Source: Phage NC-B. Taken from it: 64,000 nt of DNA. The stretch lies in the sequence record MK310183, one strand, 5' to 3'. Under the pieces are notes generated by a model. That model saw nothing but the letters and a program-made list of their open reading frames with translations. It ran no database searches and was not told where the DNA came from. Position 1 is the first letter of the stretch; each line of letters opens with the position of its first letter. A program made the translations under genes and the position numbers. Of this stretch, positions 2,900 to 53,137 are shown piece by piece.

Positions 2900-3391
2900 A
2901 TGGACGCTATCGCATTGCCGCCTGTACAGATGAGCCTAAGTCCGGCTGGTATGGAGTTTATCATGAAGCATGAAGGCATGAGAACTAAAGCCTATAAAGA
3001 CTCCGCTGGAATCTGGACTATATGTGTAGGGGCTACGCGCGATATGAATGGGTATCCAGTAAGACAAGGATTAACGTATTCTATAGAGGATTGTCTAGCT
3101 CTGCTAGATAGAGACACACAAGACTCTGTTCGTGCTACTCAGAAAAACATAAGAGTTCCTATGCTAGCTCATGAATTTGATGCTGTCACTTCTTTCAACT
3201 TTAATGTTGGTGGTGGTGCTTTGTCAACTTCAAAACTTAGGAAAGTGATCAACGGAGATGTGAAGGGTGATGTTTACTCAGAGTTCTTACGTTGGGATAA
3301 GATAACTGTTAAAGGTGTAAAACAGCAGAGTCCGGGGCTTCACAATCGTAGGGTTGCAGAAGCAGACCTATACACCACAGGAAAATATTAA
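2900..3391 (+). CDS. Lysozyme (glycoside hydrolase family 24, T4 e / lambda R-like muramidase)
   Basis: AAAGGAGG RBS; motif HEGMRTKAYKDSAGIWTICVGAT matches the EG...AY.D..G..TIG.G catalytic region of GH24 lysozymes. Confidence 0.7.
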   Translation: MDAIALPPVQMSLSPAGMEFIMKHEGMRTKAYKDSAGIWTICVGATRDMNGYPVRQGLTYSIEDCLALLDRDTQDSVRATQKNIRVPMLAHEFDAVTSFNFNVGGGALSTSKLRKVINGDVKGDVYSEFLRWDKITVKGVKQQSPGLHNRRVAEADLYTTGKY

Positions 3392-3403
3392 TGGAGGTGC
3401 CTT

Positions 3404-4207
3404 TTGGCTATCGAAACAACTGCGGTAGTAACTACCGACTTAAACCCTCTGTACCCACGGGACAGGGATTATCTTTATGAAGGGGCTGCCCAGATACGAC
3501 TGGTCAAACAAGTATTAATTAACACCTTTCCTAACATCACAGAGCCAGTTCAACTTGACTCAGATTCTTTCAACATTCTAGCAAACAAGGTCTCCTTTAC
3601 TGGAGATTCTATGGATGTTGGAGGTTTGATGATCAAAAACTTAACTCCGGGAACAGGAGACAAAGACGCTGTAACCAAAGGTCAGATGGAAGCTTTCATG
3701 TTGAATTGGATGCAGAATAAACTATACCGTATTGGTGCTTACTACATCACTGAAGAAGATATCAACCCCGGAGATTCTAGCTCTCTTGGTTTTGGTTCTT
3801 GGGCTAAAGTAACTGGTGTTATTATGGGTACTGGTGTTGTTAACCCTGATGGATCTGTTCCTAATGCTCAGCGTGTTGAATTCCAAGCAGGTGGCACAGG
3901 AGGTCGAGTATTCAACACAATCCGTGCTGACAATATGCCTCTTACTACAATCAATGGTTCCAGTTTTCAAGTTAGTTCTTATTCTCACTCACATAATATC
4001 ACGATGGGTCGTGGAGATGCTAGCGGTCACAACAGCAGTCCTAATTGGTATAGTCCGGGTGGTGGTTATACTCAGGTAACTGATACTAACACTCACTCTC
4101 ACTCGATTACAGGTTCTGTTAGTTTTGGACGTGATGATGTATCGAGACAACCTATCAACACTTTGCCGCCTTTCAGAGCAGCGCATATCTGGAGACGTAT
4201 TAGCTAA
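3404..4207 (+). CDS. Putative tail fiber / receptor-binding protein with HxH motifs
   Basis: TTG start 6 nt after GGAGG RBS; Gly/Ser/Thr-rich; repeated HxH motifs (SHSHNITMG, THSHSITG) as in metal-binding fibre tips. Confidence 0.4.
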   Translation: MAIETTAVVTTDLNPLYPRDRDYLYEGAAQIRLVKQVLINTFPNITEPVQLDSDSFNILANKVSFTGDSMDVGGLMIKNLTPGTGDKDAVTKGQMEAFMLNWMQNKLYRIGAYYITEEDINPGDSSSLGFGSWAKVTGVIMGTGVVNPDGSVPNAQRVEFQAGGTGGRVFNTIRADNMPLTTINGSSFQVSSYSHSHNITMGRGDASGHNSSPNWYSPGGGYTQVTDTNTHSHSITGSVSFGRDDVSRQPINTLPPFRAAHIWRRIS

Positions 4208-4216
4208 GGAGGAACT

Positions 4217-7200
4217 ATGGCGCTTTATCCAATAAAATCTTTAGGGGCTGTAGGGGTTATTGCTGACCAAGCTCCGACTGATTTAGCACCTAATGCTTTC
4301 ACTAATGCTATCAATGCCCGCTTTGTAGAGCAAAGAGTTTTTAAGACGGGGGGCAATGCCCCTCTTTCTTATGTAGAAGAAGATAAAGAGATTACACCAC
4401 TTTCTTTTATATCAATGCCTTTTGACTACTATAGTGCAGGTAATAGCTTTCTGATTGTTGGTACAGACAAAAAGCTATACAAGCTAACAGATGAAAGTTT
4501 GACAGATATTAGCCGAAAGGTTGCTACTGTCACAAAAAGAGCTTCCGCTTCTATTAAGATATATCCGGTTGTTTCTCAGATTGTTCCTAAAGAAACTTCT
4601 ATTTCAATGAATTTCAATCAAACTAAAGCCTTGGAAGTTTCTATTCTTCCTGAAGATGCTAATAACACAGCTTTAGTTTGGGAGGTTAGTAATTCTTCTT
4701 ATGGTAAAGTAGAAGCTGACACCGAGAACCCTAAAACTGCAACTTTGACGTCTTATGAAAAAGAAGGGAATTTAGTAGTTACTGTATCAACAGCTGATAA
4801 ATCTATTAGTGCTCAGATTGCAGTAAACATCATAGATGGTGATTCTGGTATCTTCTTAAGTCAGGATACAATAACTGTCCGCAAAGGTGGTAACACAACG
4901 CTAACTGCTGTTACTGGAAAAACTCCTGTAACTTGGGTCTCTAGTAATGCTTCTGTTGTGTCTGTAACACCTAATGCTAATACACTGACAGCTACTTTGT
5001 CTGCTAATGGTGAGGGTACTGTAACAATAACTGCTGATAACGGAACTAAGAGTGCTTCTTGTCAAGTTACTGTTATACCTCAGATAGACAGTATCACTCT
5101 GAGTCAGACAAGCGTTCAAATGAGCAGGGGTACTCAGTATGTTTTAACTGCTACGGTTAATCCTTCAGATGCTCCCAATAAAAGCATAACTTGGACTTCC
5201 TCTAATCCTACCATTGCCACAGTTTCTGGAAATAGTACAGAAGCGGTAATAACAGGGTTACTAGCTGGGTTTACTGAAATCACAGCTGTTACTCAAGAGG
5301 GTGATAGATCAGCAACCTGTACAGTGAGAGTTGATTTAGCTGGGAGAATGATGCGAACTTCTGCAATGGCTTTATCAGAACCTGTTGTAGATTCTATACA
5401 AGAAGAAGAAACCAATAATACTCCTATCGAATCAGAAGAGGTTTTATATTTTGTTAATGAGCCATCTGGAGTTGATACCTCAGGAATGTATGAAGGTAAC
5501 AACTTCTATGATTACTCAAACGTCAACGATATGGAAGGTTTTGCACGAGCTGCACTCATGTCCAGCGATACTCCGTTGCAATCTTTATCACTAGATATCA
5601 TCGATGCCTCTCTTGATGTTGGGGAAGATATTGTAATTACAGCCAATGCTTTGCCTGAGGGAGAGTATTTCTATCAGTGGACAGTGGACAAAGCAGGATA
5701 TGTTTCAACCACATCTACTACCGGGAAATCTCTAAAACTGACAGCTATTCGTAAAGGTGAGATCAAAGTTACTTGTACTGCTAGTCAAATGACTCAGAAA
5801 GATTATGATGCTTTTGACGACTATCCTTGGTATCACACCATAATCTCTAACTGTGCAGTGGCTACCACTCACTATGAAACACCACAGGTCAAAGAGTTTG
5901 AATCTGAGTATTTCGTAGATCTTCCGGGATGGGGTGAGCAAACAGTCGTTGATAATGATGGCAACCCTTCTGTTAAGAAATTTAACTGGAAGTGTGAGCG
6001 TATTCGTGCATTCAACAACAGACTTTTTGCTCTGAATATGAGGGAATCTAATGCATCTGGTGTAACTACTCACTACCCTCTAAGACTTCGGTGGTCGAAT
6101 TTCGCTAACGAAAACAAAGCTCCATCTCTTTGGGATGATTATGCTTATGATCGTTTAACAACTTCAGACCTATCAGCAAACATCGTTGGTCAAACTGAGG
6201 CTTTGGAAAATGGGTACGCTGGGTATATAGATTTAGCAGATTCTAACGGAAGCTTGATTGATGTACTTCCTCTGAAAGATTACCTTTTTGTTTACACGGA
6301 GTTCGAAACCTACATTGGCTCTCCAACCAATAACACATATCAGCCCCTTATGTTTAAGAAGCTGTTTAATGACTCTGGCATACTTGCTCCTGAGTGTGCA
6401 GTTGAAGTCGAAGGTGGACACTTCGTAGTAACTCAAAATGATGTGATCTTACATAATGGTGCATCTAAAAAATCTATAGCATCTAACCGAGTCAAGAATC
6501 TTCTCATTAATGAGATCTGTCTAGTAAACCCTCTAGCTACTAGAGTTCACCTACACCAAGACAAGAAAGAGGTTTGGGTTTTATATGTAGGTCCGGGAGA
6601 GCCTAAAGAGAGTTTTGCTTGTAATAAAGCCGCTGTTTGGAATTATGAGTTTGACACTTGGTCTTTCCGTACAATACCATATGCTCAGTGTATTGGGTTA
6701 GTCGATCCACCAGTTCTTGAGAGAGGTCCAATCTGGGCAGATTTTCAAGAGATCACTTGGGATGATCCCTCTATTAACCAATTAGTCTGGAGAAAGGATG
6801 CTAATAACTTCCGTCAAAGGATTACAATAGTTGGCTCTTTCCTGAAGGGATTCTATCAAGTGGATGTTGGTGCTCTGGACTACATCTATGATAGAACCAA
6901 TGATAGGATTATAGAAAAACCTTTAGAAATGAGGCTAGAAAGAACTGGTATTGATTTTGATAATGTCACTAATGAGTGGAATCAAAAACATATTAATAGA
7001 TTTAGACCTCAAGTTACTGGTACAGGTACTTATACTTTTGAAGTCGGTGGAAGTCAATTCTCAAACGAGTATGGACACAATCACTCAACTAAAGAGTTTA
7101 GGGTAGGCTCAGATCGTCATGTATCCGTGAGACTGAACCATCCATACCTATTCTATAATGTTATAGATAATGATGTTAACAGTAATGCTTCTATGAATGG

Positions 7201-8254: not shown

Positions 8255-9286
8255 ATGGCTTATGGAATATGGTGTCAACCTGTAGGACCGGGACCAGCTT
8301 CCCCGGCTCCTCTCTTTATTGATAGCGGAAGTACTTTTCCTCAAATAAAAAATTCAATAAGTGGGAGTTTTAACTTTAATGGGGCTGGAAGGTCTTTTCC
8401 TATTAGCGGGTGGGATGGGAGTGGTCAGATAGTGATTGTACCAACAGGCTCTCTTTGTTGGCAATGGGAGGTTCCTCCTAACTTAATTCCTGATGTATAT
8501 TGTGTCAACAATATTTATGTAGAGAATAACACATCGTTCAGGGTTACATTAAATCAAAATCCGGGAAGCAACCCTTTGTTTGACTGTGGTTTCAATGTAT
8601 ATCAAATCTACCCAAGAGCTGATAGGAACTATGGAATAACCTTCTCTAATACAGCTGATTATTTCTCTATCTCAGATGCTGGGATTGTGGGTCAATGCAT
8701 CTGGGCTTGGCAAGGAACTATAAACAACGCTCTACAGATACCTGATATTGGTGGTTTCTATATGCCTAATGCTGTAGTTTTTGCTAACTGGTCTGATGGT
8801 GGTGTTGGTTTATCTTATACATCAGGAGATAGGGTGATTCGAGTTTATCAAAACAGGTCTTATAACAATGGCAACACTAATGAAGGTGGTTCTGTGTTTG
8901 CTAGGGTTGCTGTATTTTGTAATGGTGCTGGGGTTCCTGAACACAACGGCGGTTTAAATATATATTCTCCCGGAACTACTCAGTGCGTATTCTCTACTTA
9001 TAGGTCTCCTTTTACAGTAGACACTTTCGTAGGCTCAGCAGGTGGAAATACTGGCTTAGCTTATCCTATGATTCCTCTGTCTTCTGGAGTTGGAGCTATC
9101 AGAGGAAGTGGGAGTGGTTGGTATTATCAACAAATGCGTTCTCATACCATGTCAGGGTCTTCAATAGGAACTGGATATGGTAGATATATGTTCCAATGGT
9201 CTAACAGTTATGACTTAGGTTCTAATGCTGCTGTTAATATCTCCATCCCTGTAATCAACGCTGCTAAGATTTTTGCAGGTTTATGA
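8255..9286 (+). CDS. Virion structural protein (Gly/Asn-rich, probable tail component)
   Basis: AGGGAG RBS; 343 aa; 1-nt gap from upstream stop suggests translational coupling. Confidence 0.4.
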   Translation: MAYGIWCQPVGPGPASPAPLFIDSGSTFPQIKNSISGSFNFNGAGRSFPISGWDGSGQIVIVPTGSLCWQWEVPPNLIPDVYCVNNIYVENNTSFRVTLNQNPGSNPLFDCGFNVYQIYPRADRNYGITFSNTADYFSISDAGIVGQCIWAWQGTINNALQIPDIGGFYMPNAVVFANWSDGGVGLSYTSGDRVIRVYQNRSYNNGNTNEGGSVFARVAVFCNGAGVPEHNGGLNIYSPGTTQCVFSTYRSPFTVDTFVGSAGGNTGLAYPMIPLSSGVGAIRGSGSGWYYQQMRSHTMSGSSIGTGYGRYMFQWSNSYDLGSNAAVNISIPVINAAKIFAGL

Positions 9287-12150: not shown

Positions 12151-13818
12151 ATGCAACAAACTTCTTATGCGTATCTTCGCAGTCAAGACCCAAGAAATCA
12201 GATTTATGGTGTTAAACAAGGGGCCGCTTCGGCCTCTCCATACATGGCAAGACCTGCTTACCCAGCTGCTGATGTTTCAATGTATAGTCAGAGACCTCCT
12301 GCCTCTCCTGTAGGTTTATCCTCTCTTGTTGCTACTGCTCAAGAAGACCAAGAAGCTATGTTAAATCCGGGATTTAGGCAGCGCCTTATGGAAGCAGAGA
12401 ATCAAGGGACTCCTACAAGCCTTCAGGGTATTGATATTGGCGAACCAGCTCCTGCTATGAATAACCCAGATCTATCCTCTGATGAGGGTCTACAAGCTGC
12501 TGGGTTGATGCCTAGTGACCCACTTCCTGTTACTCCTCCTCGTAAACCTCTGGAAGAAACAGATAAAGAGTTCTCTCCAGTTCAGGTGGAACAGGCTCAG
12601 AATGTTATTAACACTTTAGCTAATAGTAATCCAGCTCCTGAAGGTATGGCTGGTGCAACTCGTGCTAAAGACCAAGAACGTATTAATAATGATATTATGG
12701 AAGTAGCTAAAGCTAAAGATCCAGCGCAAGCTTGGAATGAGCTTCAGAAGCAACCGTTCTACCAGAAGTCTAGTTTCTATACTGGCTTAATGGGTGTTGG
12801 TCTTTCTATCATGTCAGGTAAATCTCCTATTGAAGCTTTCCAGATTGGTTCTGGCTTAGCTGCTCAGGATGAAACTAAACAACAACTAGAAGCCAATCGC
12901 GATGCTCTGTTAGAACAAGGCTACTCTCAAGATTCAGTTGCTGCTGCAATTGCTTCGGGAGATCCTTCTCTTCTCAAGATGCGTCAGATGAGTCCTCAGG
13001 AGAAAATGGCTCTTGCTGCTCAGGATGAAGAACGTGCTAATCGTGAGTGGGATAGACGTCAACAGATTCAGGATCAATCAGTTCGTGAACGTGCTGCTGA
13101 GACTCGTCGTGCTGCTGAAGAACGTGCTGATGCACAATTTGCTAAACAGAAAGAGCTTATTGAATATCGTGATAAGGTTAAAGCAGACCGCGCTGAACAA
13201 GCTGCTCAGAGCTTCAACTTCAGTACGAAAGAGCTTCGTAACGTTCAGAATACTGCTGAAGGTTCTGTTGCTAAGCAGTGGGCAGAAAAAGCTGCTCTGT
13301 TTAAACAGTCTCATAAGGACTTGGATTTGGCAGATCAGGCTATTAAAGATAAAGACTACCAATCCGCTCGTACCGCTTACATGCAGGCTATTATGAACTC
13401 CGCAAGGGCAGAAATTGGTGCTAACCGTTCTCTCCAAGCTGATGACTTGGCCCACTTTGCAGAAGACCCATCAATCTTTGTTAAGGTTGGTAACACTTGG
13501 TCCCTTAAAGCAGGCTATCGTCCTTCTGATGCTGCTCTGTCATACGCTCGTAAGCAGGCAACTGTTGGTGCTTCTTCGGCTGACAAAGGTGTTCTGGAGT
13601 CTAAGAAATCAACTATTGATGCTTATGTGGGTTCTGGCATGAATAAGAAACGTGCAACAGCTTTGGTTAACCGTGGTATACCTTCTGGCGGTTTCTATGA
13701 CCCATACAAGACTTTTGATGCAGAAGCTGAAGAATCTGTTGGTGGAGATGCAACCAATCCTCGCTTAACAGGTGCTCTTTCTTCTTCAGCGGCAGATACG
13801 AGTTGGATGTTCCAGTAA
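12151..13818 (+). CDS. Internal virion protein (Pro/Ala-rich N-terminus, charged coiled-coil centre)
   Basis: AGGAGA RBS; 555 aa. Confidence 0.4.
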   Translation: MQQTSYAYLRSQDPRNQIYGVKQGAASASPYMARPAYPAADVSMYSQRPPASPVGLSSLVATAQEDQEAMLNPGFRQRLMEAENQGTPTSLQGIDIGEPAPAMNNPDLSSDEGLQAAGLMPSDPLPVTPPRKPLEETDKEFSPVQVEQAQNVINTLANSNPAPEGMAGATRAKDQERINNDIMEVAKAKDPAQAWNELQKQPFYQKSSFYTGLMGVGLSIMSGKSPIEAFQIGSGLAAQDETKQQLEANRDALLEQGYSQDSVAAAIASGDPSLLKMRQMSPQEKMALAAQDEERANREWDRRQQIQDQSVRERAAETRRAAEERADAQFAKQKELIEYRDKVKADRAEQAAQSFNFSTKELRNVQNTAEGSVAKQWAEKAALFKQSHKDLDLADQAIKDKDYQSARTAYMQAIMNSARAEIGANRSLQADDLAHFAEDPSIFVKVGNTWSLKAGYRPSDAALSYARKQATVGASSADKGVLESKKSTIDAYVGSGMNKKRATALVNRGIPSGGFYDPYKTFDAEAEESVGGDATNPRLTGALSSSAADTSWMFQ

Positions 13819-13843: not shown

Positions 13844-13852
13844 TAATGTATA
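13844..13852 (+). promoter_or_regulatory. Candidate phage-sigma promoter element TAATGTATA
   Basis: Motif 36 nt upstream of ATG 13889; same motif recurs upstream of several minus-strand genes. Confidence 0.4.
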
Positions 13853-19569: not shown

Positions 19570-20391
19570 TTATTCCCAAGTTTTATCTAACCATGACCAA
19601 TCAAAGAGGTCACCTTCAGCTTGTCCAACGAAGAGCAATCGAGCGTTTTCTAACATCTTATCTTCTGCTTCTTCCTCGAACCTCTTATAGTATTCCATTC
19701 GTATAATATGATAAAGAGTCCACTTATCGAATACCTTCTCAATAAGTTTGATTGCAGCCTTGCTACCAATGCCTTTACGACGCATTACTAGATTGCCACC
19801 CCATATCATTTCAACCTTCTCACCACATCCGGGAATGTTATCTGTGCTATCCCCGATCAGCATCTGGTAGAAGAAGTTCTGCCATGCTACTTCCTCTGGT
19901 ACATAGTGAGGAGGTACTTCTTTCTGTCTCTCCCCGCAAGCCCAACGGTAATGCCATCCGGGGGTGATTAACAAATCTTTATCACGGGTGCAAATGATAG
20001 TGTTCTTATCACGTCTCTGTCTTTCAGCTAAGGCATCATCTGCCTCTCTCCCAAAAACTTCAACGAATTCATAATTCTCTTTAATGTAATCGCTGACATT
20101 TTGCCAGTGGTGAGGTCTTTCTCCCGGTGGTCGATTAGCTTTATAACCTTGCTGCTTAGCAATATCAAACCGAAAATTACCACCTTCGCTGAAGTAAAAG
20201 ATTGTTTTCTCGCAACCAGACCTTGCAATGATTACATCTATTTTATGTTGAAGTCGTTCAATCAAGAATCCATAATCAACTGGAACACGACCTGTGTCTA
20301 GAAAAGGATGCTCTTGTGTAAGAGCACCGACTTCATATCGCAGAACATCTGCATCTACAATTGCTACTTCCGGATAGATTACATCAGACAT
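19570..20391 (-). CDS. 5'-3' exonuclease / flap endonuclease (FEN, T7 gp6 / T5 D15-like)
   Basis: ATG at 20391 with GGAGAGG RBS and ATGTCTGA overlap with upstream stop; motifs GYKANR, DDALA, IPGCGEK. Confidence 0.6.
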   Translation of the reverse strand: MSDVIYPEVAIVDADVLRYEVGALTQEHPFLDTGRVPVDYGFLIERLQHKIDVIIARSGCEKTIFYFSEGGNFRFDIAKQQGYKANRPPGERPHHWQNVSDYIKENYEFVEVFGREADDALAERQRRDKNTIICTRDKDLLITPGWHYRWACGERQKEVPPHYVPEEVAWQNFFYQMLIGDSTDNIPGCGEKVEMIWGGNLVMRRKGIGSKAAIKLIEKVFDKWTLYHIIRMEYYKRFEEEAEDKMLENARLLFVGQAEGDLFDWSWLDKTWE

Positions 20392-20980
20392 AGAGACCTC
20401 TCCGTGTCCCTTCAATAATCCACTCCAAATCCTCCACTGCCTCTTCTACAGAACGGTCGTTAAAGAGGAGATAGGTTGGTAGATTTGTTCCTTCAATATA
20501 AGAACGAGAGTCCCCTTCAAAGGAGCAGCCATCTCGGAGAATCTGAACTACTCGAACATGGAAGTGTTTCTCTAGTTCTTCAACTTCTGCTTTAAATCCA
20601 CCATCAGAGAAGACGATAACATCATTCTGTGATGGGATACGTTGTTGAATATTGCTAACAGCAAGTTTACCCATGCAGGTCTCACCAAACATGGGCTTCA
20701 GATAGTTCTCACTAGTTGCAATCATCAAGTCTCGAACTGACTTACCGTCCCATTCAGGACGGCTATGTTCTTTCCACTCACGATCGTTGTACAGCTCCAT
20801 GAACTCATAAAGAGGTAGACCTAATGCAGCAGCAGCCACTCGATACATAGGCTCCTTAAAAGCCTTTACATGCGGCCTAAACTCGGTGTTACCAAGTGTT
20901 TTCTCTAACCAAGAATTAGCGATTGTGTCTTTACCACAACCCGGTGGTCCATTCAGAATTACTACTAATGGTTTACTCAT
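20384..20980 (-). CDS. P-loop nucleotide kinase (dNMP kinase-like)
   Basis: Walker A GPPGCGKDT near N-terminus; 198 aa; TAATG coupling with upstream gene. Confidence 0.5.
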   Translation of the reverse strand: MSKPLVVILNGPPGCGKDTIANSWLEKTLGNTEFRPHVKAFKEPMYRVAAAALGLPLYEFMELYNDREWKEHSRPEWDGKSVRDLMIATSENYLKPMFGETCMGKLAVSNIQQRIPSQNDVIVFSDGGFKAEVEELEKHFHVRVVQILRDGCSFEGDSRSYIEGTNLPTYLLFNDRSVEEAVEDLEWIIEGTRRGLYV

Positions 20981-21630
20981 TATTGAATCATCCCTTGAAG
21001 ATCTTCTTTATCAAAGTGCTTCTCTACTACCGCTTCATACAGATCACGATTCTCTGAATAACGACGATAGAAGGTTCCGTGTGAAATTCCCAACTCTTGC
21101 TGGATGTGATCATGTGGGATGCCGAGAAAGAGCATTGAGAACATGCTTGCCATCTTACGGTTTTCCATAATGTCACTCAGGTCTTGGAAGAAGAAAAAGA
21201 TTCTAGATTCCAAGAACGGATCTCCAGTAGAATCATGCTTATCCATCGCAATCTCTAAAGGACTTTCCCATGAATTCATCTCAGGAGGTCTAAACATATC
21301 AGCCTCTGGAATAGAGTAGATACGTCGGTCTCCAACTGTCTGACGATTAGAACGAATCGACCAGATGATATTCTTGACACGATAAGTCATGTGCTCAATA
21401 TCTTTTTCATCAGTGAGCAGAAGTTCTTCTTGCTTTGCAAACACAAAACGCCAAGCGTTCAGTAATACTTCCTGAGCAACATCCTCTGCCTCGTGATAGT
21501 CTTTAATGTCATACATAAAATACTTATGCACAACTTTCCAGTTCTCTCGATAAAATTCATCGAAGGTTGGATAATATTTAATAGGTATGCCATGAATACG
21601 ATAGCGTGTGGGTGTTGTCTTTTTCTTCAT
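20980..21630 (-). CDS. Sigma-70 family (ECF-like) RNA polymerase sigma factor
   Basis: AAGGA RBS; region-2-like [12 protein letters not shown] and region-4-like [20 protein letters not shown]. Confidence 0.5.
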
Positions 21631-21654
21631 AAGTCGTCCTTAACTTACTTTACA

Positions 21655-21879
21655 TTAAACTACACAGAATAAATACATTGCTGTATCAGGACAAGGGATG
21701 GCTGTCTGAATGCCACTTACTTTAATCCACATATCCTCTTCAGAGTCATAATAAGCCCAATAGGACTGATCTCCATCTACAAAGAATTTAAAGGTTCGTC
21801 CCCAAACCTGATTATTGTATTCCCATACTGCATGAAGCTGAGTAACACCTTCTGGTATTGTAAGTTCCGCTCTGATCAT
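21655..21879 (-). CDS. Hypothetical protein
   Basis: ATGA overlap with upstream stop; 74 aa. Confidence 0.4.
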   Translation of the reverse strand: MIRAELTIPEGVTQLHAVWEYNNQVWGRTFKFFVDGDQSYWAYYDSEEDMWIKVSGIQTAIPCPDTAMYLFCVV

Positions 21880-22136
21880 TGTATTCCTCTCTCCTTGAGA
21901 GCTTTAAGCAAACCGTTGTGGTTAGCGGCACAGGTTGTATAATTGTCCTGATACCACTCGAGTGTTGTTGCAAGTGCTACTCCCTGTCCACTCTGAAGTA
22001 AAGGGAGGTCTACATCACATTCAGCTTTTAGGTTTGTTGGTAAGGGCATTAGCTGCCTGCTGTTGTCGCTCGTTGAACAAGCTGACATACTCATCACTAG
22101 CACACACATTGTAAAAAACTGGCTTAGTCTTTTCAT
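21876..22136 (-). CDS. Outer-membrane spanin (Rz1-like lipoprotein)
   Basis: Signal peptide with MSAC lipobox, Pro-rich mature region; 5' end overlaps the i-spanin gene in another frame. Confidence 0.5.
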   Translation of the reverse strand: MKRLSQFFTMCVLVMSMSACSTSDNSRQLMPLPTNLKAECDVDLPLLQSGQGVALATTLEWYQDNYTTCAANHNGLLKALKERGIQ

Positions 22137-22368
22137 AATGCATCTCTTTGTAAATAGTTTCCGTGTTCTTCTTCCAGTTTGATAAACCAGTCAGAACTTT
22201 CTGAGCCACTTCATCAGCAGCCTTAGCTCTCTCAATCTCAATCTCTTGCTGTTTCTTCTCTTGGTCAAGAGCATTGCTGTCATTTCGATATTGCTCAAAC
22301 TTGACACCACCAAAGAAAATCAGAGCTGTGAAGATTAAAAAACCTATATTGTTTTGAAGCTTTTCCAT
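22021..22368 (-). CDS. Inner-membrane spanin (Rz-like)
   Basis: ATG at 22368 with GGAG RBS (track start is GTG inside the terminator); N-terminal TM helix then charged coiled coil. Confidence 0.5.
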   Translation of the reverse strand: MEKLQNNIGFLIFTALIFFGGVKFEQYRNDSNALDQEKKQQEIEIERAKAADEVAQKVLTGLSNWKKNTETIYKEMHYEKTKPVFYNVCASDEYVSLFNERQQQAANALTNKPKS

Positions 22369-22384
22369 TTTAACTCCAACGAAA

Positions 22385-22408
22385 AAAGCCACCCGAAGGT
22401 GGCTAAGC
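22385..22408 (-). terminator. Rho-independent terminator
   Basis: Minus-strand AGCCACC-TTCG-GGTGGCT hairpin followed by TTTTTT. Confidence 0.6.
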
Positions 22409-22426: not shown

Positions 22427-23167
22427 TTAGAATGGAGAGTCATCCTCTTCAAAGGTTGATTGCGGCTCTTCATTAATGGTAGGGATGCTTGGAGTAGCAT
22501 CTTTCTGTTCAGTGTCAGAAGCTTTAGTAACTTCACGACCAGCCAGAGGGATATTCTTAGCATCGTTAGCTTGAGTCAAGAGGTTACGTTGGAATGGGAA
22601 GATTGCTTGATAAGCAGCTAAGTTAGCGTCAGTCTCAGCATACGGTTCGAAGAAGATCAACTCACTACGAGGAGCACCTACCGCGTCACGATATTTAGTC
22701 GGGATTGGAGTGATGCTTTTAATGGAGTTTTTCTTCTCACCAGCTTTGTTTACATAGGAATTAACCAGAATGTTAACAGGCTGACCTAACAGCATATCTT
22801 TAAACCAACCCAAATCACCTTTCAGTGCTTGAACACTTGGGTCGATCATTTTAATCAGATTTAGAATACCAGAGTTCTTAGCTCGTGGATTTACATCGAA
22901 AGATTTAAACTGGCAAGCAGGACGAGGGTCCAGAGGTTTGCCTTCATTATCAGTCCCTGTTGCATCTACGCCAATCAGCTCAAAAGCTAAGTCCATACGG
23001 AAAGCTGGATTCTTAGGAGTAACTGCTTTGGTTTTAGGGTCAATCCAAGGGTCACGATTGTGAACACCCAAACCTACAACACGAACAATACGTGCTTCGT
23101 ACTCACCATCAGGGATTACATTGTAGTTGGATTTACGGGATACAGACAGTTCAGGGATCATAGACAT
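22427..23167 (-). CDS. ssDNA-binding protein (T7 gp2.5-like)
   Basis: 246 aa; acidic C-terminal tail ending EEDDSPF as in SSB C-termini. Confidence 0.45.
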   Translation of the reverse strand: MSMIPELSVSRKSNYNVIPDGEYEARIVRVVGLGVHNRDPWIDPKTKAVTPKNPAFRMDLAFELIGVDATGTDNEGKPLDPRPACQFKSFDVNPRAKNSGILNLIKMIDPSVQALKGDLGWFKDMLLGQPVNILVNSYVNKAGEKKNSIKSITPIPTKYRDAVGAPRSELIFFEPYAETDANLAAYQAIFPFQRNLLTQANDAKNIPLAGREVTKASDTEQKDATPSIPTINEEPQSTFEEDDSPF

Positions 23168-23226
23168 ATTAATATTTCCTTATATAGATTTAAGATTGTT
23201 GCTCTCTTTGAGCGGTTTGTATACTA

Positions 23227-23235
23227 TATACATTA
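23227..23235 (-). promoter_or_regulatory. Candidate phage-sigma promoter element TAATGTATA
   Basis: Minus-strand motif ~60 nt upstream of SSB start. Confidence 0.35.
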
Positions 23236-23297
23236 CACTTATACAGATAAGGTTCTATTATACTATAACCTTTTTGGTAGTAGATAATGACAAGTAG

Positions 23298-23306
23298 TAA
23301 TGTATA
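23298..23306 (+). promoter_or_regulatory. TAATGTATA motif on + strand with no + strand gene downstream
   Basis: Exact motif, divergent from the minus copy 70 bp away. Confidence 0.25.
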
Positions 23307-23500
23307 TATGGTATAGCTAGTAAAGCTATTGCAGGCTTGTATATTGGGCAATCATTGTAACCCTTGCAAGTACCGAAGGGCAGGAGACACCTGCGAGATA
23401 AAAATAGAGAATTAAGGAAATCCTTGATTTAGGTTGAGGACTCCTAGGACTTTGATTCTCTATTAAAATCAAAAGAAAACTTAACTTAAAACAATAACTT

Positions 23501-29226: not shown

Positions 29227-29541
29227 TCAACTTGAGCTTAAAGCTCCTTTGCGACCGCCTGCTGATTTTCCAGCACGATCTCCACTTTTGCCGCCGTTCG
29301 AGCGATTTCGAGAGACTGATTCAACACGTAAGTTACTTGACGCATTAGAACCTCCCGACTTGATTGATCGTTTGTGTCCAACATCTTTACCTCGGACAGC
29401 AGCTTTTCCATCGCGCTTTTCAACGATGCGACGTGCACGGTGGCGCTGAGCATCTCCGCTCTTGCTACCAACGCCGGTCTCACCCCTTGCGATTGCAGTT
29501 CTTCGTTCTTGTGCATAATCACGTTTCGCCTTATCGGTCAT
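29227..29541 (-). CDS. Highly basic Gly/Ser/Arg/Lys-rich protein (possible nucleic-acid binding)
   Basis: AAGGAG RBS before ATGATG; 104-105 aa; an alternative overlapping frame 29238-29522 also exists. Confidence 0.4.
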   Translation of the reverse strand: MTDKAKRDYAQERRTAIARGETGVGSKSGDAQRHRARRIVEKRDGKAAVRGKDVGHKRSIKSGGSNASSNLRVESVSRNRSNGGKSGDRAGKSAGGRKGALSSS

Positions 29542-29576
29542 CATAACTCCTTAATATATCAGTGTACACTAAGGAG

Positions 29577-29585
29577 TATACATTA
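29577..29585 (-). promoter_or_regulatory. Candidate phage-sigma promoter element TAATGTATA
   Basis: Minus-strand motif ~33 nt upstream of start at 29541-29544. Confidence 0.35.
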
Positions 29586-33711: not shown

Positions 33712-33720
33712 TATACATTT
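33712..33720 (-). promoter_or_regulatory. Candidate promoter element (variant AAATGTATA)
   Basis: Minus-strand motif ~40 nt upstream of start 33672. Confidence 0.3.
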
Positions 33721-33744
33721 GAGAGTGATCATATCTACTACCAA

Positions 33745-40260: not shown

Positions 40261-40446
40261 TTATTCTACTTCGAAGTGTTTGATCACACCAGTTAGTACA
40301 TCAGATTGGAATGTACCCACTAGCTCTGCGCCTCGGAAGAAATTGACATTTGTTCCTAGTGTTTCAAAGCGCTCTGCTTGAATGTCCAGAGATTGAATAT
40401 TCCCTTCTGATGTTACTGTACGAAACATGATTGTATATTTATTCAT
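40261..40446 (-). CDS. Hypothetical protein
   Basis: ATGA overlap with upstream stop; 61 aa. Confidence 0.35.
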   Translation of the reverse strand: MNKYTIMFRTVTSEGNIQSLDIQAERFETLGTNVNFFRGAELVGTFQSDVLTGVIKHFEVE

Positions 40447-40685
40447 AGACTTGTTACTCCCTTATCTGCTTGTGCAATAGCAAAAATTCGCTCTACACAT
40501 TCCATTGAGTCTTTATCACCACGCTTTAAGAAGGTGACGATAGCAGAGAATTGATTACCAATCATTCTCTTATTGGTGATACCAAACTCTTCACAGAGTT
40601 GGTTAATCATTTTACGAGAGCCTACAATCAGAGGCTCTTTTTCTTCAGTCATTCCACGGCTGATCAAATCTTCGATAGACAACAT
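40443..40685 (-). CDS. Hypothetical protein
   Basis: AAGGA RBS, ATG; 80 aa. Confidence 0.4.
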   Translation of the reverse strand: MLSIEDLISRGMTEEKEPLIVGSRKMINQLCEEFGITNKRMIGNQFSAIVTFLKRGDKDSMECVERIFAIAQADKGVTSL

Positions 40686-53061: not shown

Positions 53062-53137
53062 TGGTGCACCCTACAGGACTCGAACCTGTAACCAACGACT
53101 TAGAAGGTCGCTGCTCTGTCCATTGAGCTAAGGGTGC
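53062..53137 (-). tRNA. tRNA-Arg (anticodon UCU)
   Basis: 76-nt cloverleaf on minus strand: acceptor GCACCCT/AGGGTGC, D-stem GCTC/GAGC, anticodon loop CTTCTAA, T-arm ACAGG-TTCGAGT-CCTGT, 3' CCA encoded. Confidence 0.8.

Follow-up and report, generated by a model that had tools for sequence, protein, structure and literature searches.

Does this phage encode a sigma factor of its own, and if so, which genes would the protein serve and together with which partner? The question is raised by an open reading frame on the minus strand of the window, that is, of the whole stretch of 64,000 nucleotides of Phage NC-B DNA (record MK310183) analyzed here. The product had been described, from the letters of the DNA alone, as an ECF-like sigma factor that redirects the host core RNA polymerase (RNAP) to late genes. 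The reading frame (20980..21630, minus strand) runs from ATG to TAA and comprises the predicted 216 codons plus stop. A ribosome-binding site, AAGGA, can be read from the sequence six bases upstream of the start codon (21637..21641, minus strand). The one-base overlap with a downstream kinase gene is also borne out: base 20980 is common to the TAA of the sigma gene (20982..20980) and the ATG of the next gene (20980..20978), which is located at 20384..20980 on the minus strand and encodes a deoxynucleoside monophosphate (dNMP) kinase of 198 amino acids (PHROG 139, E 1.4e-40). The placement of the gene inside a replication block proved roughly right. Genes for the kinase and an exonuclease follow downstream, spanin genes lie upstream, and the sigma gene sits at the promoter-distal end of a leftward cluster of middle genes. 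Its neighbors, a 74-amino-acid protein (PHROG 30479), the spanins and the dNMP kinase, were annotated by a PHROGs scan only, in which none of them appeared as an anti-sigma factor.

The HMM search proposed along with the original prediction gave a mixed result. The Pfam model Sigma70_r2 (PF04542) aligned with amino acids 26-61 and scored 19.1 bits (E 0.0011), below its gathering score of 24. No region-4 model (Sigma70_r4 or Sigma70_r4_2) matched the C-terminal domain in Pfam, even at E values up to 10; the only other Pfam matches of this domain were DUF1492 (E 0.028) and TetR_N (E 0.064). TIGR02937, the model for the sigma70-ECF superfamily, aligned from residue 23 to 191 and thus across both domains, with 20.6 bits versus a cut-off of 42.9, and all NCBIfam ECF and sigma-70 models stayed far below their cut-offs for the window protein. 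When a profile built from eight orthologs was compared with PDB sequences, 9m7y_F was the sole significant match (SigL followed at E 0.38 and SigK at E 1.3); such a profile adds no sensitivity because the orthologs are too alike (80-100% identical). A single-sequence AlphaFold2 model (mean pLDDT 43, pTM 0.35) was too poor for a fold search. PHROG 1740, "RNA polymerase sigma factor", was matched unambiguously with an E value of 1e-43. The term ECF-like is acceptable for the apparent two-domain architecture of the protein, but not as a statement of family membership, since every Pfam and NCBIfam cut-off was missed.

In a global alignment with 214 aligned residues, the window protein shares 80% identity along its entire length with gp36 of phage phiEco32 (phi32_36, YP_001671781). 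The latter is also chain F of PDB entry 9m7y, where it is named "RNA polymerase ECF sigma factor", and this chain matches the window protein end to end with an E value of 9.7e-118. Taken together, the matches to PDB 9m7y_F and PHROG 1740 put the similarity to sigma proteins far beyond chance, and on every criterion examined the sequence is that of a member of the gp36 family. A protein 100% identical to it, Bas87_0027, carries the annotation "RNA polymerase sigma factor". The 8 kb around the sigma gene share 97.4% DNA identity with Escherichia phage AnnaHegner_Bas87 and 90-95% with SU7, EK010, IME267, ECBP2 and other members of Suseptimavirus (Gordonclarkvirinae), while phiEco32 and other Kuravirus phages are less similar in this region. 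By tblastn, the protein was found in 98 phage records with identities of 79.5-100%, all of them Escherichia or Shigella phages of the phiEco32-like group. Proteins that are 99.5-100% identical nevertheless bear the label "hypothetical protein" in SU7, IME267, 101114BS3, HC-25922 and PAS59. The core proteins described for Kuravirus-like phages include the sigma factor and the small regulator (PMC9965538). The neighbors of the sigma gene are not those seen in phiEco32: the window phage lacks gene 35, with a GTP-binding domain, and gene 37, with a macro domain, and it is for this reason that its sigma gene directly overlaps the dNMP kinase gene.

The phiEco32 protein has been characterized genetically, biochemically and by cryo-EM (PMC12276001, PMC8948821). 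It is purified together with host RNAP, assembles into a holoenzyme on the E. coli core enzyme, and serves the transcription of the middle and late genes (PMC12276001, PMC8948821). Its promoters follow the extended consensus tAATGTAtA, and transcription starts 6-8 bp downstream of this element (PMC8948821, PMC4281155). In the 3.4 Å structure of RNAP with gp36 and gp79 on promoter P68, the N-terminal domain (amino acids 1-103) occupies the clamp helices in the manner of sigma2 and the C-terminal domain (amino acids 138-214) the flap-tip helix in the manner of sigma4, while the linker between them passes through the active-site cleft like region 3.2 (PMC12276001). In the same work, contacts of gp36 residues to the clamp, to bases of the -10 and -35 regions and to the flap-tip helix are listed, together with the residues on which helix 1 of gp79 docks, and the action of gp79 is described: this protein pushes region 4 of the host sigma factor out of the RNA-exit channel, which turns off transcription by sigma70 and sigmaS, and afterwards stabilizes gp36 on the promoter (PMC12276001).

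The domain limits and residue contacts of gp36 were mapped onto the window protein. With the limits given by the cryo-EM structure of gp36, the sigma2-like N-terminal domain covers amino acids 1-103 (21322..21630, minus strand) and would bind the clamp helices and recognize and melt the -10 region. It is followed by the linker, amino acids 104-139 (21214..21321, minus strand), which in gp36, according to the description of the structure, threads the active-centre cleft like sigma region 3.2, and which is two residues longer than that of phiEco32 in the global alignment due to an NS insertion at positions 119-120. The sigma4-like helix-turn-helix domain, amino acids 140-216 (20983..21213, minus strand), is predicted to bind the flap-tip helix, helix 1 of gp79 and the -35 region. 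Identity was found for 23 of the 24 published residue contacts, the sole change being a conservative one, M138 to L140, in the flap-tip groove. All five residues of the acidic patch directed at the clamp helices (D44, E47, E49, D50, E54) and all eight residues with stacking or hydrogen-bond contacts to the -10 region (E79, H80, Y83, R84, W90, S91, S94, N95) are retained. The same is true in the C-terminal domain for the counterparts of gp36 I142, F166, L167, F204, Y186, R187, F146, M164 and I169; four of these (F146, M164, L167, I169) form the groove for docking of gp79, which is completely conserved. Y186 and R187, the residues that read -37G and -34A in the -35 region, correspond to the identical residues Y188 and R189 of the window protein.

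The two peptides on which the sigma assignment had originally been based are both present, at amino acids 50-61 and 170-186. The first, taken as region 2-like, lies within the sigma2-like helix that bears the acidic clamp-binding residues and so coincides with the core-binding helix of the gp36 structure. The second, taken as a region-4 helix-turn-helix segment, coincides with the -35 recognition helix, with Y188 and R189 on a 10-residue stretch there.

Transcription by gp36 involves a partner protein and specific promoters, and counterparts of both were found. An ortholog of gp79, which in phiEco32 inhibits the sigma70 holoenzyme and co-activates gp36, is encoded at 40443..40685 on the minus strand (80 amino acids; 76% identity and E 1.5e-38 by tblastn; PHROG 8339, E 2.5e-47). 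The hydrophobic residues L6, L9, V10 and M14 of gp79 helix 1 appear as I, L, I and M in the window ortholog. Six gp36 promoters, P6, P13, P26, P40, P58 and P68, have been published for phiEco32 (PMC8948821 Table S3). We take P6, P13 and P26 as late promoters because of the location of their genes; P40, P58 and P68 are middle promoters. Judging from the coordinates of Bas87, the genes belonging to P6 and P13 would fall to the left of the window. The four published positions that lie inside it (P26, P40, P58, P68) all bear the consensus and face the orthologs of genes 26, 40, 58 and 68. The counterpart of the late promoter P26 is a perfect intergenic TAATGTATA element on the plus strand (13844..13852), which faces the gene for a 1481-amino-acid protein from a distance of 36 nt upstream. 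On the minus strand, the P40 counterpart, again a perfect TAATGTATA (23227..23235), is situated 59 nt upstream of the gene-40 ortholog (22427..23167) and is invariant across seven correctly placed relatives. The P58 counterpart has the same perfect sequence (29577..29585, minus strand) and occupies an intergenic position upstream of an open reading frame for 105 amino acids (29227..29544). The P68 counterpart (33712..33742, minus strand) consists of GGTAGTAGATA, 11 nt and aAATGTATA and is nearly identical to P68 of phiEco32; it retains the "a" variant given in the published table, and its GGTA supplies -37G and -34A. P68 is the promoter present in the cryo-EM structure of gp36 (PMC12276001).

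These elements are more frequent than expected only in their extended forms. The exact 9-mer TAATGTATA occurs four times in the window versus 0.63 times expected, a number reached in none of 100 shuffles, and all four copies reside in intergenic gaps. AATGTATA is enriched as well (8 found, 2.6 expected). The bare hexamer AATGTA is not, with 41 occurrences in the window compared with 45 expected.

In principle, the protein could belong to the gp36 family of sigma factors but have diverged in Suseptimavirus in promoter specificity or in dependence on a partner, such that the rules established for phiEco32 do not carry over. About 20% of the residues differ, the linker carries the two-residue insertion, and M138 in the flap-tip groove is replaced by L. 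The gp79 partner, moreover, is only 76% identical, with L6 and V10 both exchanged for I, and the genes flanking the sigma gene are unlike those in phiEco32. On the other hand, all ten residues for which base contacts or stacking at the fork junction are reported are identical, and the promoter elements have the same sequence and position as those of phiEco32, including the -35 block of P68. In addition, the two sigma types are found combined in a natural chimera in phage EK010, which hints at interchangeable halves. We consider such a divergence very improbable. Hardly any credence can be given to an ordinary helix-turn-helix regulator, i.e., a repressor or activator that leaves the host sigma factor in place. 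In its favor, no Pfam or NCBIfam sigma model reaches its cut-off, and the C-terminal part weakly resembles TetR_N (E 0.064) and structures of the TetR family (E 0.18 to 0.96). The TetR matches, however, lack significance and extend over only about 30 residues, and the window protein is 80% identical to a protein seen at the sigma position on core RNAP in a cryo-EM open-promoter complex and conserves the contact residues for the clamp helices and the flap-tip helix.

The product of the 216-codon reading frame, then, is almost certainly a sigma factor of the phage itself, orthologous to gp36, which, together with the gp79 ortholog, would replace sigma70 on the host core RNAP and transcribe middle and late genes from tAATGTAtA promoters. 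For this phage, the analysis shows homology, retention of the contact residues and that partner and promoters are present; what is said about RNAP binding, about promoter specificity and about how gp79 acts comes from the work on phiEco32. By homology to phiEco32 gp36 (PMC12276001), the window protein is expected to bind the host core RNAP and to initiate transcription in a promoter-specific manner. The original idea that a phage sigma redirects host core RNAP to late genes is thereby supported through an ortholog with 80% identity and preserved contacts, yet a role confined to late genes is too narrow, as middle genes would also be driven by the gp36-type factor and a second phage protein, gp79, would take part.

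The following transcription program can be proposed. Early in infection, the phage would be transcribed by the host sigma70 holoenzyme. The sigma protein and the gp79 ortholog (40443..40685) would be produced in the middle phase. Bound to the RNAP clamp, gp79 would drive region 4 of the host sigma factor from the RNA-exit channel, so that host and early phage transcription are switched off, and the phage sigma factor could capture the core enzyme. Its sigma2-like N-terminal domain would then sit on the clamp helices and read and melt the AATGTA element (positions -14 to -9), the linker would pass through the active-site cleft, and the sigma4-like C-terminal domain would bind the flap-tip helix and helix 1 of gp79 and touch the -35 region. 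For the resulting gp36-type holoenzyme, the expected promoters are the counterparts of P68, P58 and P40 in the case of middle genes and that of P26 in the case of late genes; late genes would further be served from P13 and P6, whose positions would fall beyond the window.

A program of this kind makes use of the host core enzyme, and it had been stated before that the window contains no gene for a phage RNA polymerase. We found no RNA-polymerase domain in the ten largest open reading frames of the window, and none is annotated in the complete genome of Bas87 (97% identical), which agrees with that statement. What these ten reading frames did match were family A DNA polymerase and DnaB-like helicase, glutamine amidotransferase domains, Ig-like domains and a tail-fibre chaperone domain. 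Four large reading frames gave no Pfam match, among them that for the 1481-amino-acid protein, whose counterpart in phage SU10 is an abundant 163-kDa protein listed among the late-gene products in a mass-spectrometry table (PMC4281155). Note that two phiEco32 reading frames named "RNA polymerase" (42 amino acids) and "polymerase" (87 amino acids) in RefSeq are far too small for such a function and look like annotation noise.

As regards how the sigma gene is first expressed, the gene-40 ortholog ends in front of a strong terminator-like hairpin (22387-22404, minus strand), and no convincing sigma70-type promoter was found between this hairpin and the sigma start codon. The best sigma70-type candidates upstream of the gene matched at 9 of 12 positions, and with 10 found versus 6.1 expected they occur at about the background rate. 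In phiEco32, a sigma70 promoter for gene 36 is predicted inside gene 37, a gene that is absent from the window phage. A near-consensus element, TAATGTAAA, which precedes the sigma ATG by 19 nt, was considered as an autoregulatory promoter and rejected. It occurs in SU7 too, is broken in the close relative TH43 (AATATA) and is absent from relatives in Kuravirus and Nieuwekanaalvirus, and because of this distribution we regard TAATGTAAA as probably non-functional.

The gap of 333 bp between the gene-40 ortholog and a phosphoesterase gene (23168-23500) contains two perfect TAATGTATA elements arranged back to back. One of them is the P40 counterpart (23227-23235, minus strand); the other (23298-23306, plus strand) faces in the opposite direction. 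Exactly 11 nt upstream of the latter we found GGTAGTAGATA, the same arrangement as in P68. The combination GGTA-N19-AATGTA occurs twice in the window compared with 0.09 times expected, namely here (23276-23306) and in the P68 counterpart. The element in opposite orientation is kept, along with its -35 block, in phiEco32, LAMP, ES17, SDYTW1, KBNP1711, SU7 and EK010, i.e., in seven relatives from three genera. On the grounds of pattern and conservation, we propose the stretch 23276..23306 (plus strand; GGTAGTAGATA, 11 nt, TAATGTATA) as a candidate seventh gp36-type promoter, with function being inferred. It does not figure among the six published promoters (PMC8948821 Table S3), and as an opposite-facing promoter it may represent a new observation.

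The candidate element points away from all nearby genes. No open reading frame follows it; what comes next is a non-coding stretch of about 180 nt that contains several hairpins. This hairpin block is present in all 98 relatives, where it is almost always unannotated, and it is about 87% identical between the window phage and Kuravirus, whereas the surrounding 8 kb are only 60-80% identical in most relatives. Within the block (23313-23485), the two strands fold about equally well (z of -2.8 and -2.6), and no Rfam family was matched (best E 0.78). The high similarity of the sequences leaves minimal covariation. On the minus strand, the longest hairpin is followed by a run of T, as in an intrinsic terminator of the upstream operon. 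GC skew, which changes over near 18 kb, simply reflects the coding strand and is thus uninformative with respect to a replication origin. Replication origins activated through transcription are exemplified by the middle-promoter origins of T4 and the primary origin of T7. It is conceivable, and we put it forward tentatively as a reading that is rather less than probable, that the sigma factor drives a seventh, undescribed promoter at 23276-23306 (plus strand), which would yield a non-coding or antisense RNA against leftward middle transcription or would activate a replication origin through transcription.

Among systems already described, that of phiEco32 closely resembles the one of the window phage. 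The two share the domain plan of the sigma factor (sigma2-like N-terminal domain, long linker, sigma4-like C-terminal domain), its contacts to DNA, clamp, flap-tip helix and gp79, the tAATGTAtA elements at matching genome positions and the gp79 partner; they differ in the longer linker, in the residue replacing M138, and in genes 35 and 37. Salmonella phage 7-11, of the 7-11/GAP52 subgroup, likewise has a phage sigma factor, gp47 (SaPh711_gp47), which directs host core RNAP to late genes and is encoded at a similar position (PMC8948821). However, this protein is only about 15% identical to gp36 and uses a bipartite promoter, GTAAtg-(16)-aCTA, and phage 7-11 has neither a gp79 homolog nor host shut-off nor a middle class of genes (PMC8948821). 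When the window protein served as tblastn query at E 1e-5, gp47 was not found.

SigL (PDB 6DV9) and SigK (4NQW) of M. tuberculosis are examples of bacterial group 4 (ECF) sigma factors, which combine sigma2 and sigma4 without regions 1.1 and 3, a plan that the window protein appears to share, and which show weak region-2 similarity to it around the segment of amino acids 50-61. The domains of gp36 occupy the clamp helices and the flap-tip helix just as sigma2 and sigma4 of bacterial sigma factors do (PMC12276001). In contrast to ECF sigma factors, the first helix of the N-terminal domain of gp36 is rotated by about 70 degrees, helix 4 of the C-terminal domain is shorter and the flap-tip helix is rotated by about 100 degrees (PMC12276001). 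While an anti-sigma partner is typical of ECF sigma factors, albeit not universal, the activity of gp36 is modulated by the co-activator gp79 instead. With AsiA and MotA of T4, the gp36 system has in common that the switch from early to middle or late transcription is brought about by a small protein that disables region 4 of sigma70 and by a specificity factor (PMC12276001). T4 keeps a remodeled sigma70 for middle transcription, whereas the gp36 system replaces sigma70 with a phage sigma factor. T4 gp55 and SPO1 gp28 are phage sigma factors and functional analogues as well; no sequence relationship to these T4 and SPO1 systems was detected.

As a finding, the sigma factor is already known, since its ortholog has been characterized and the nearest genome annotates the gene correctly. 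Its value for annotation lies in the several deposited genomes that still label near-identical proteins as "hypothetical protein", and known promoter positions are of help for engineering these phages, which are candidates for therapeutic use. The conserved opposite-facing promoter-like element, for its part, may be a sign that these phages have a transcript yet to be mapped or a replication origin at this site.

On the plus strand, positions 23276-23306 hold a candidate promoter that fits the bipartite gp36 type perfectly (GGTAGTAGATA, 11 nt, TAATGTATA). Its layout is that of P68, the P40 counterpart lies back to back with it, and the list of the six published promoters does not include it. 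The site points away from every adjacent gene. The roughly 180 nt downstream of it (23313-23490) are conserved non-coding DNA, rich in hairpins, in which no ORF was found. The promoter is kept in seven relatives from three genera, and the non-coding block was detected in all related genomes (98 out of 98). Two further sites, both CAATGTATA with one mismatch to the consensus, reside on the coding strand inside late genes (8593-8601 and 12278-12286, both plus strand); these may either act as gp36 promoters within the genes or have arisen by chance.

The window phage and SU7 share a near-consensus element, TAATGTAAA, which in the window precedes the sigma ATG by 19 nt (21649-21657, minus strand). 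If it served as a promoter, it would imply autoregulation of the sigma gene. The TH43 copy is broken (AATATA) and the element is missing in the Kuravirus and Nieuwekanaalvirus relatives, which makes a functional role improbable. The gene-40 ortholog is immediately followed by a strong terminator-like hairpin (AGCCACCTTCGGGTGGCT with TTTTTT behind it; 22387-22404, minus strand). The genes for the spanin, the 74-aa ORF and the sigma factor lie downstream of this hairpin, whose position bears on which promoter drives initial sigma expression.

The surroundings of the sigma gene are mosaic, as is evident when window positions 20384-22392 are compared with positions 3043-5924 of the phiEco32 stretch L001. 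Two phiEco32 genes, gene 35 with a GTP-binding domain and gene 37 with a macro/Appr-1-p domain, are missing around the sigma gene in the window, where an ORF of 74 aa without assigned function (21655..21879, PHROG 30479) is instead found upstream of it. In EK010, LAMP and KBNP1711, the neighbours are different again in each case. A tRNA gene at 53065-53137 on the minus strand (Rfam RF00005, 71.9 bits) occupies the same position as the annotated tRNA-Arg of Bas87 and phiEco32.

In HC-25922, 101114BS3, IME267, SU7 and PAS59, sigma proteins with 99.5-100% identity (protein-search matches H21-H26) are labelled only 'hypothetical protein', despite the experimental characterisation of the gp36-type family. 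The phiEco32 RefSeq record names phi32_50, an ORF of 42 aa, 'RNA polymerase' and phi32_127, an ORF of 87 aa, 'polymerase' (labels at 1-27 of L001 and at 785-913 and 37657-37920 of L004, another stretch of that record). Both are far below polymerase size, and the names are therefore probably misleading automatic labels.

The sigma factor of EK010 (gene at 3501-4151 of stretch L006, NC_070981.1) looks like a natural chimera. In sequence comparisons, residues 1-100 are of the phiEco32 type, while residues 101-216 are, with a single-residue exception, of the Suseptimavirus type found in the window; the crossover lies between about residues 78 and 114. This apparent chimera suggests that the sigma2-like and sigma4-like halves are interchangeable between the phiEco32 and Suseptimavirus lineages.
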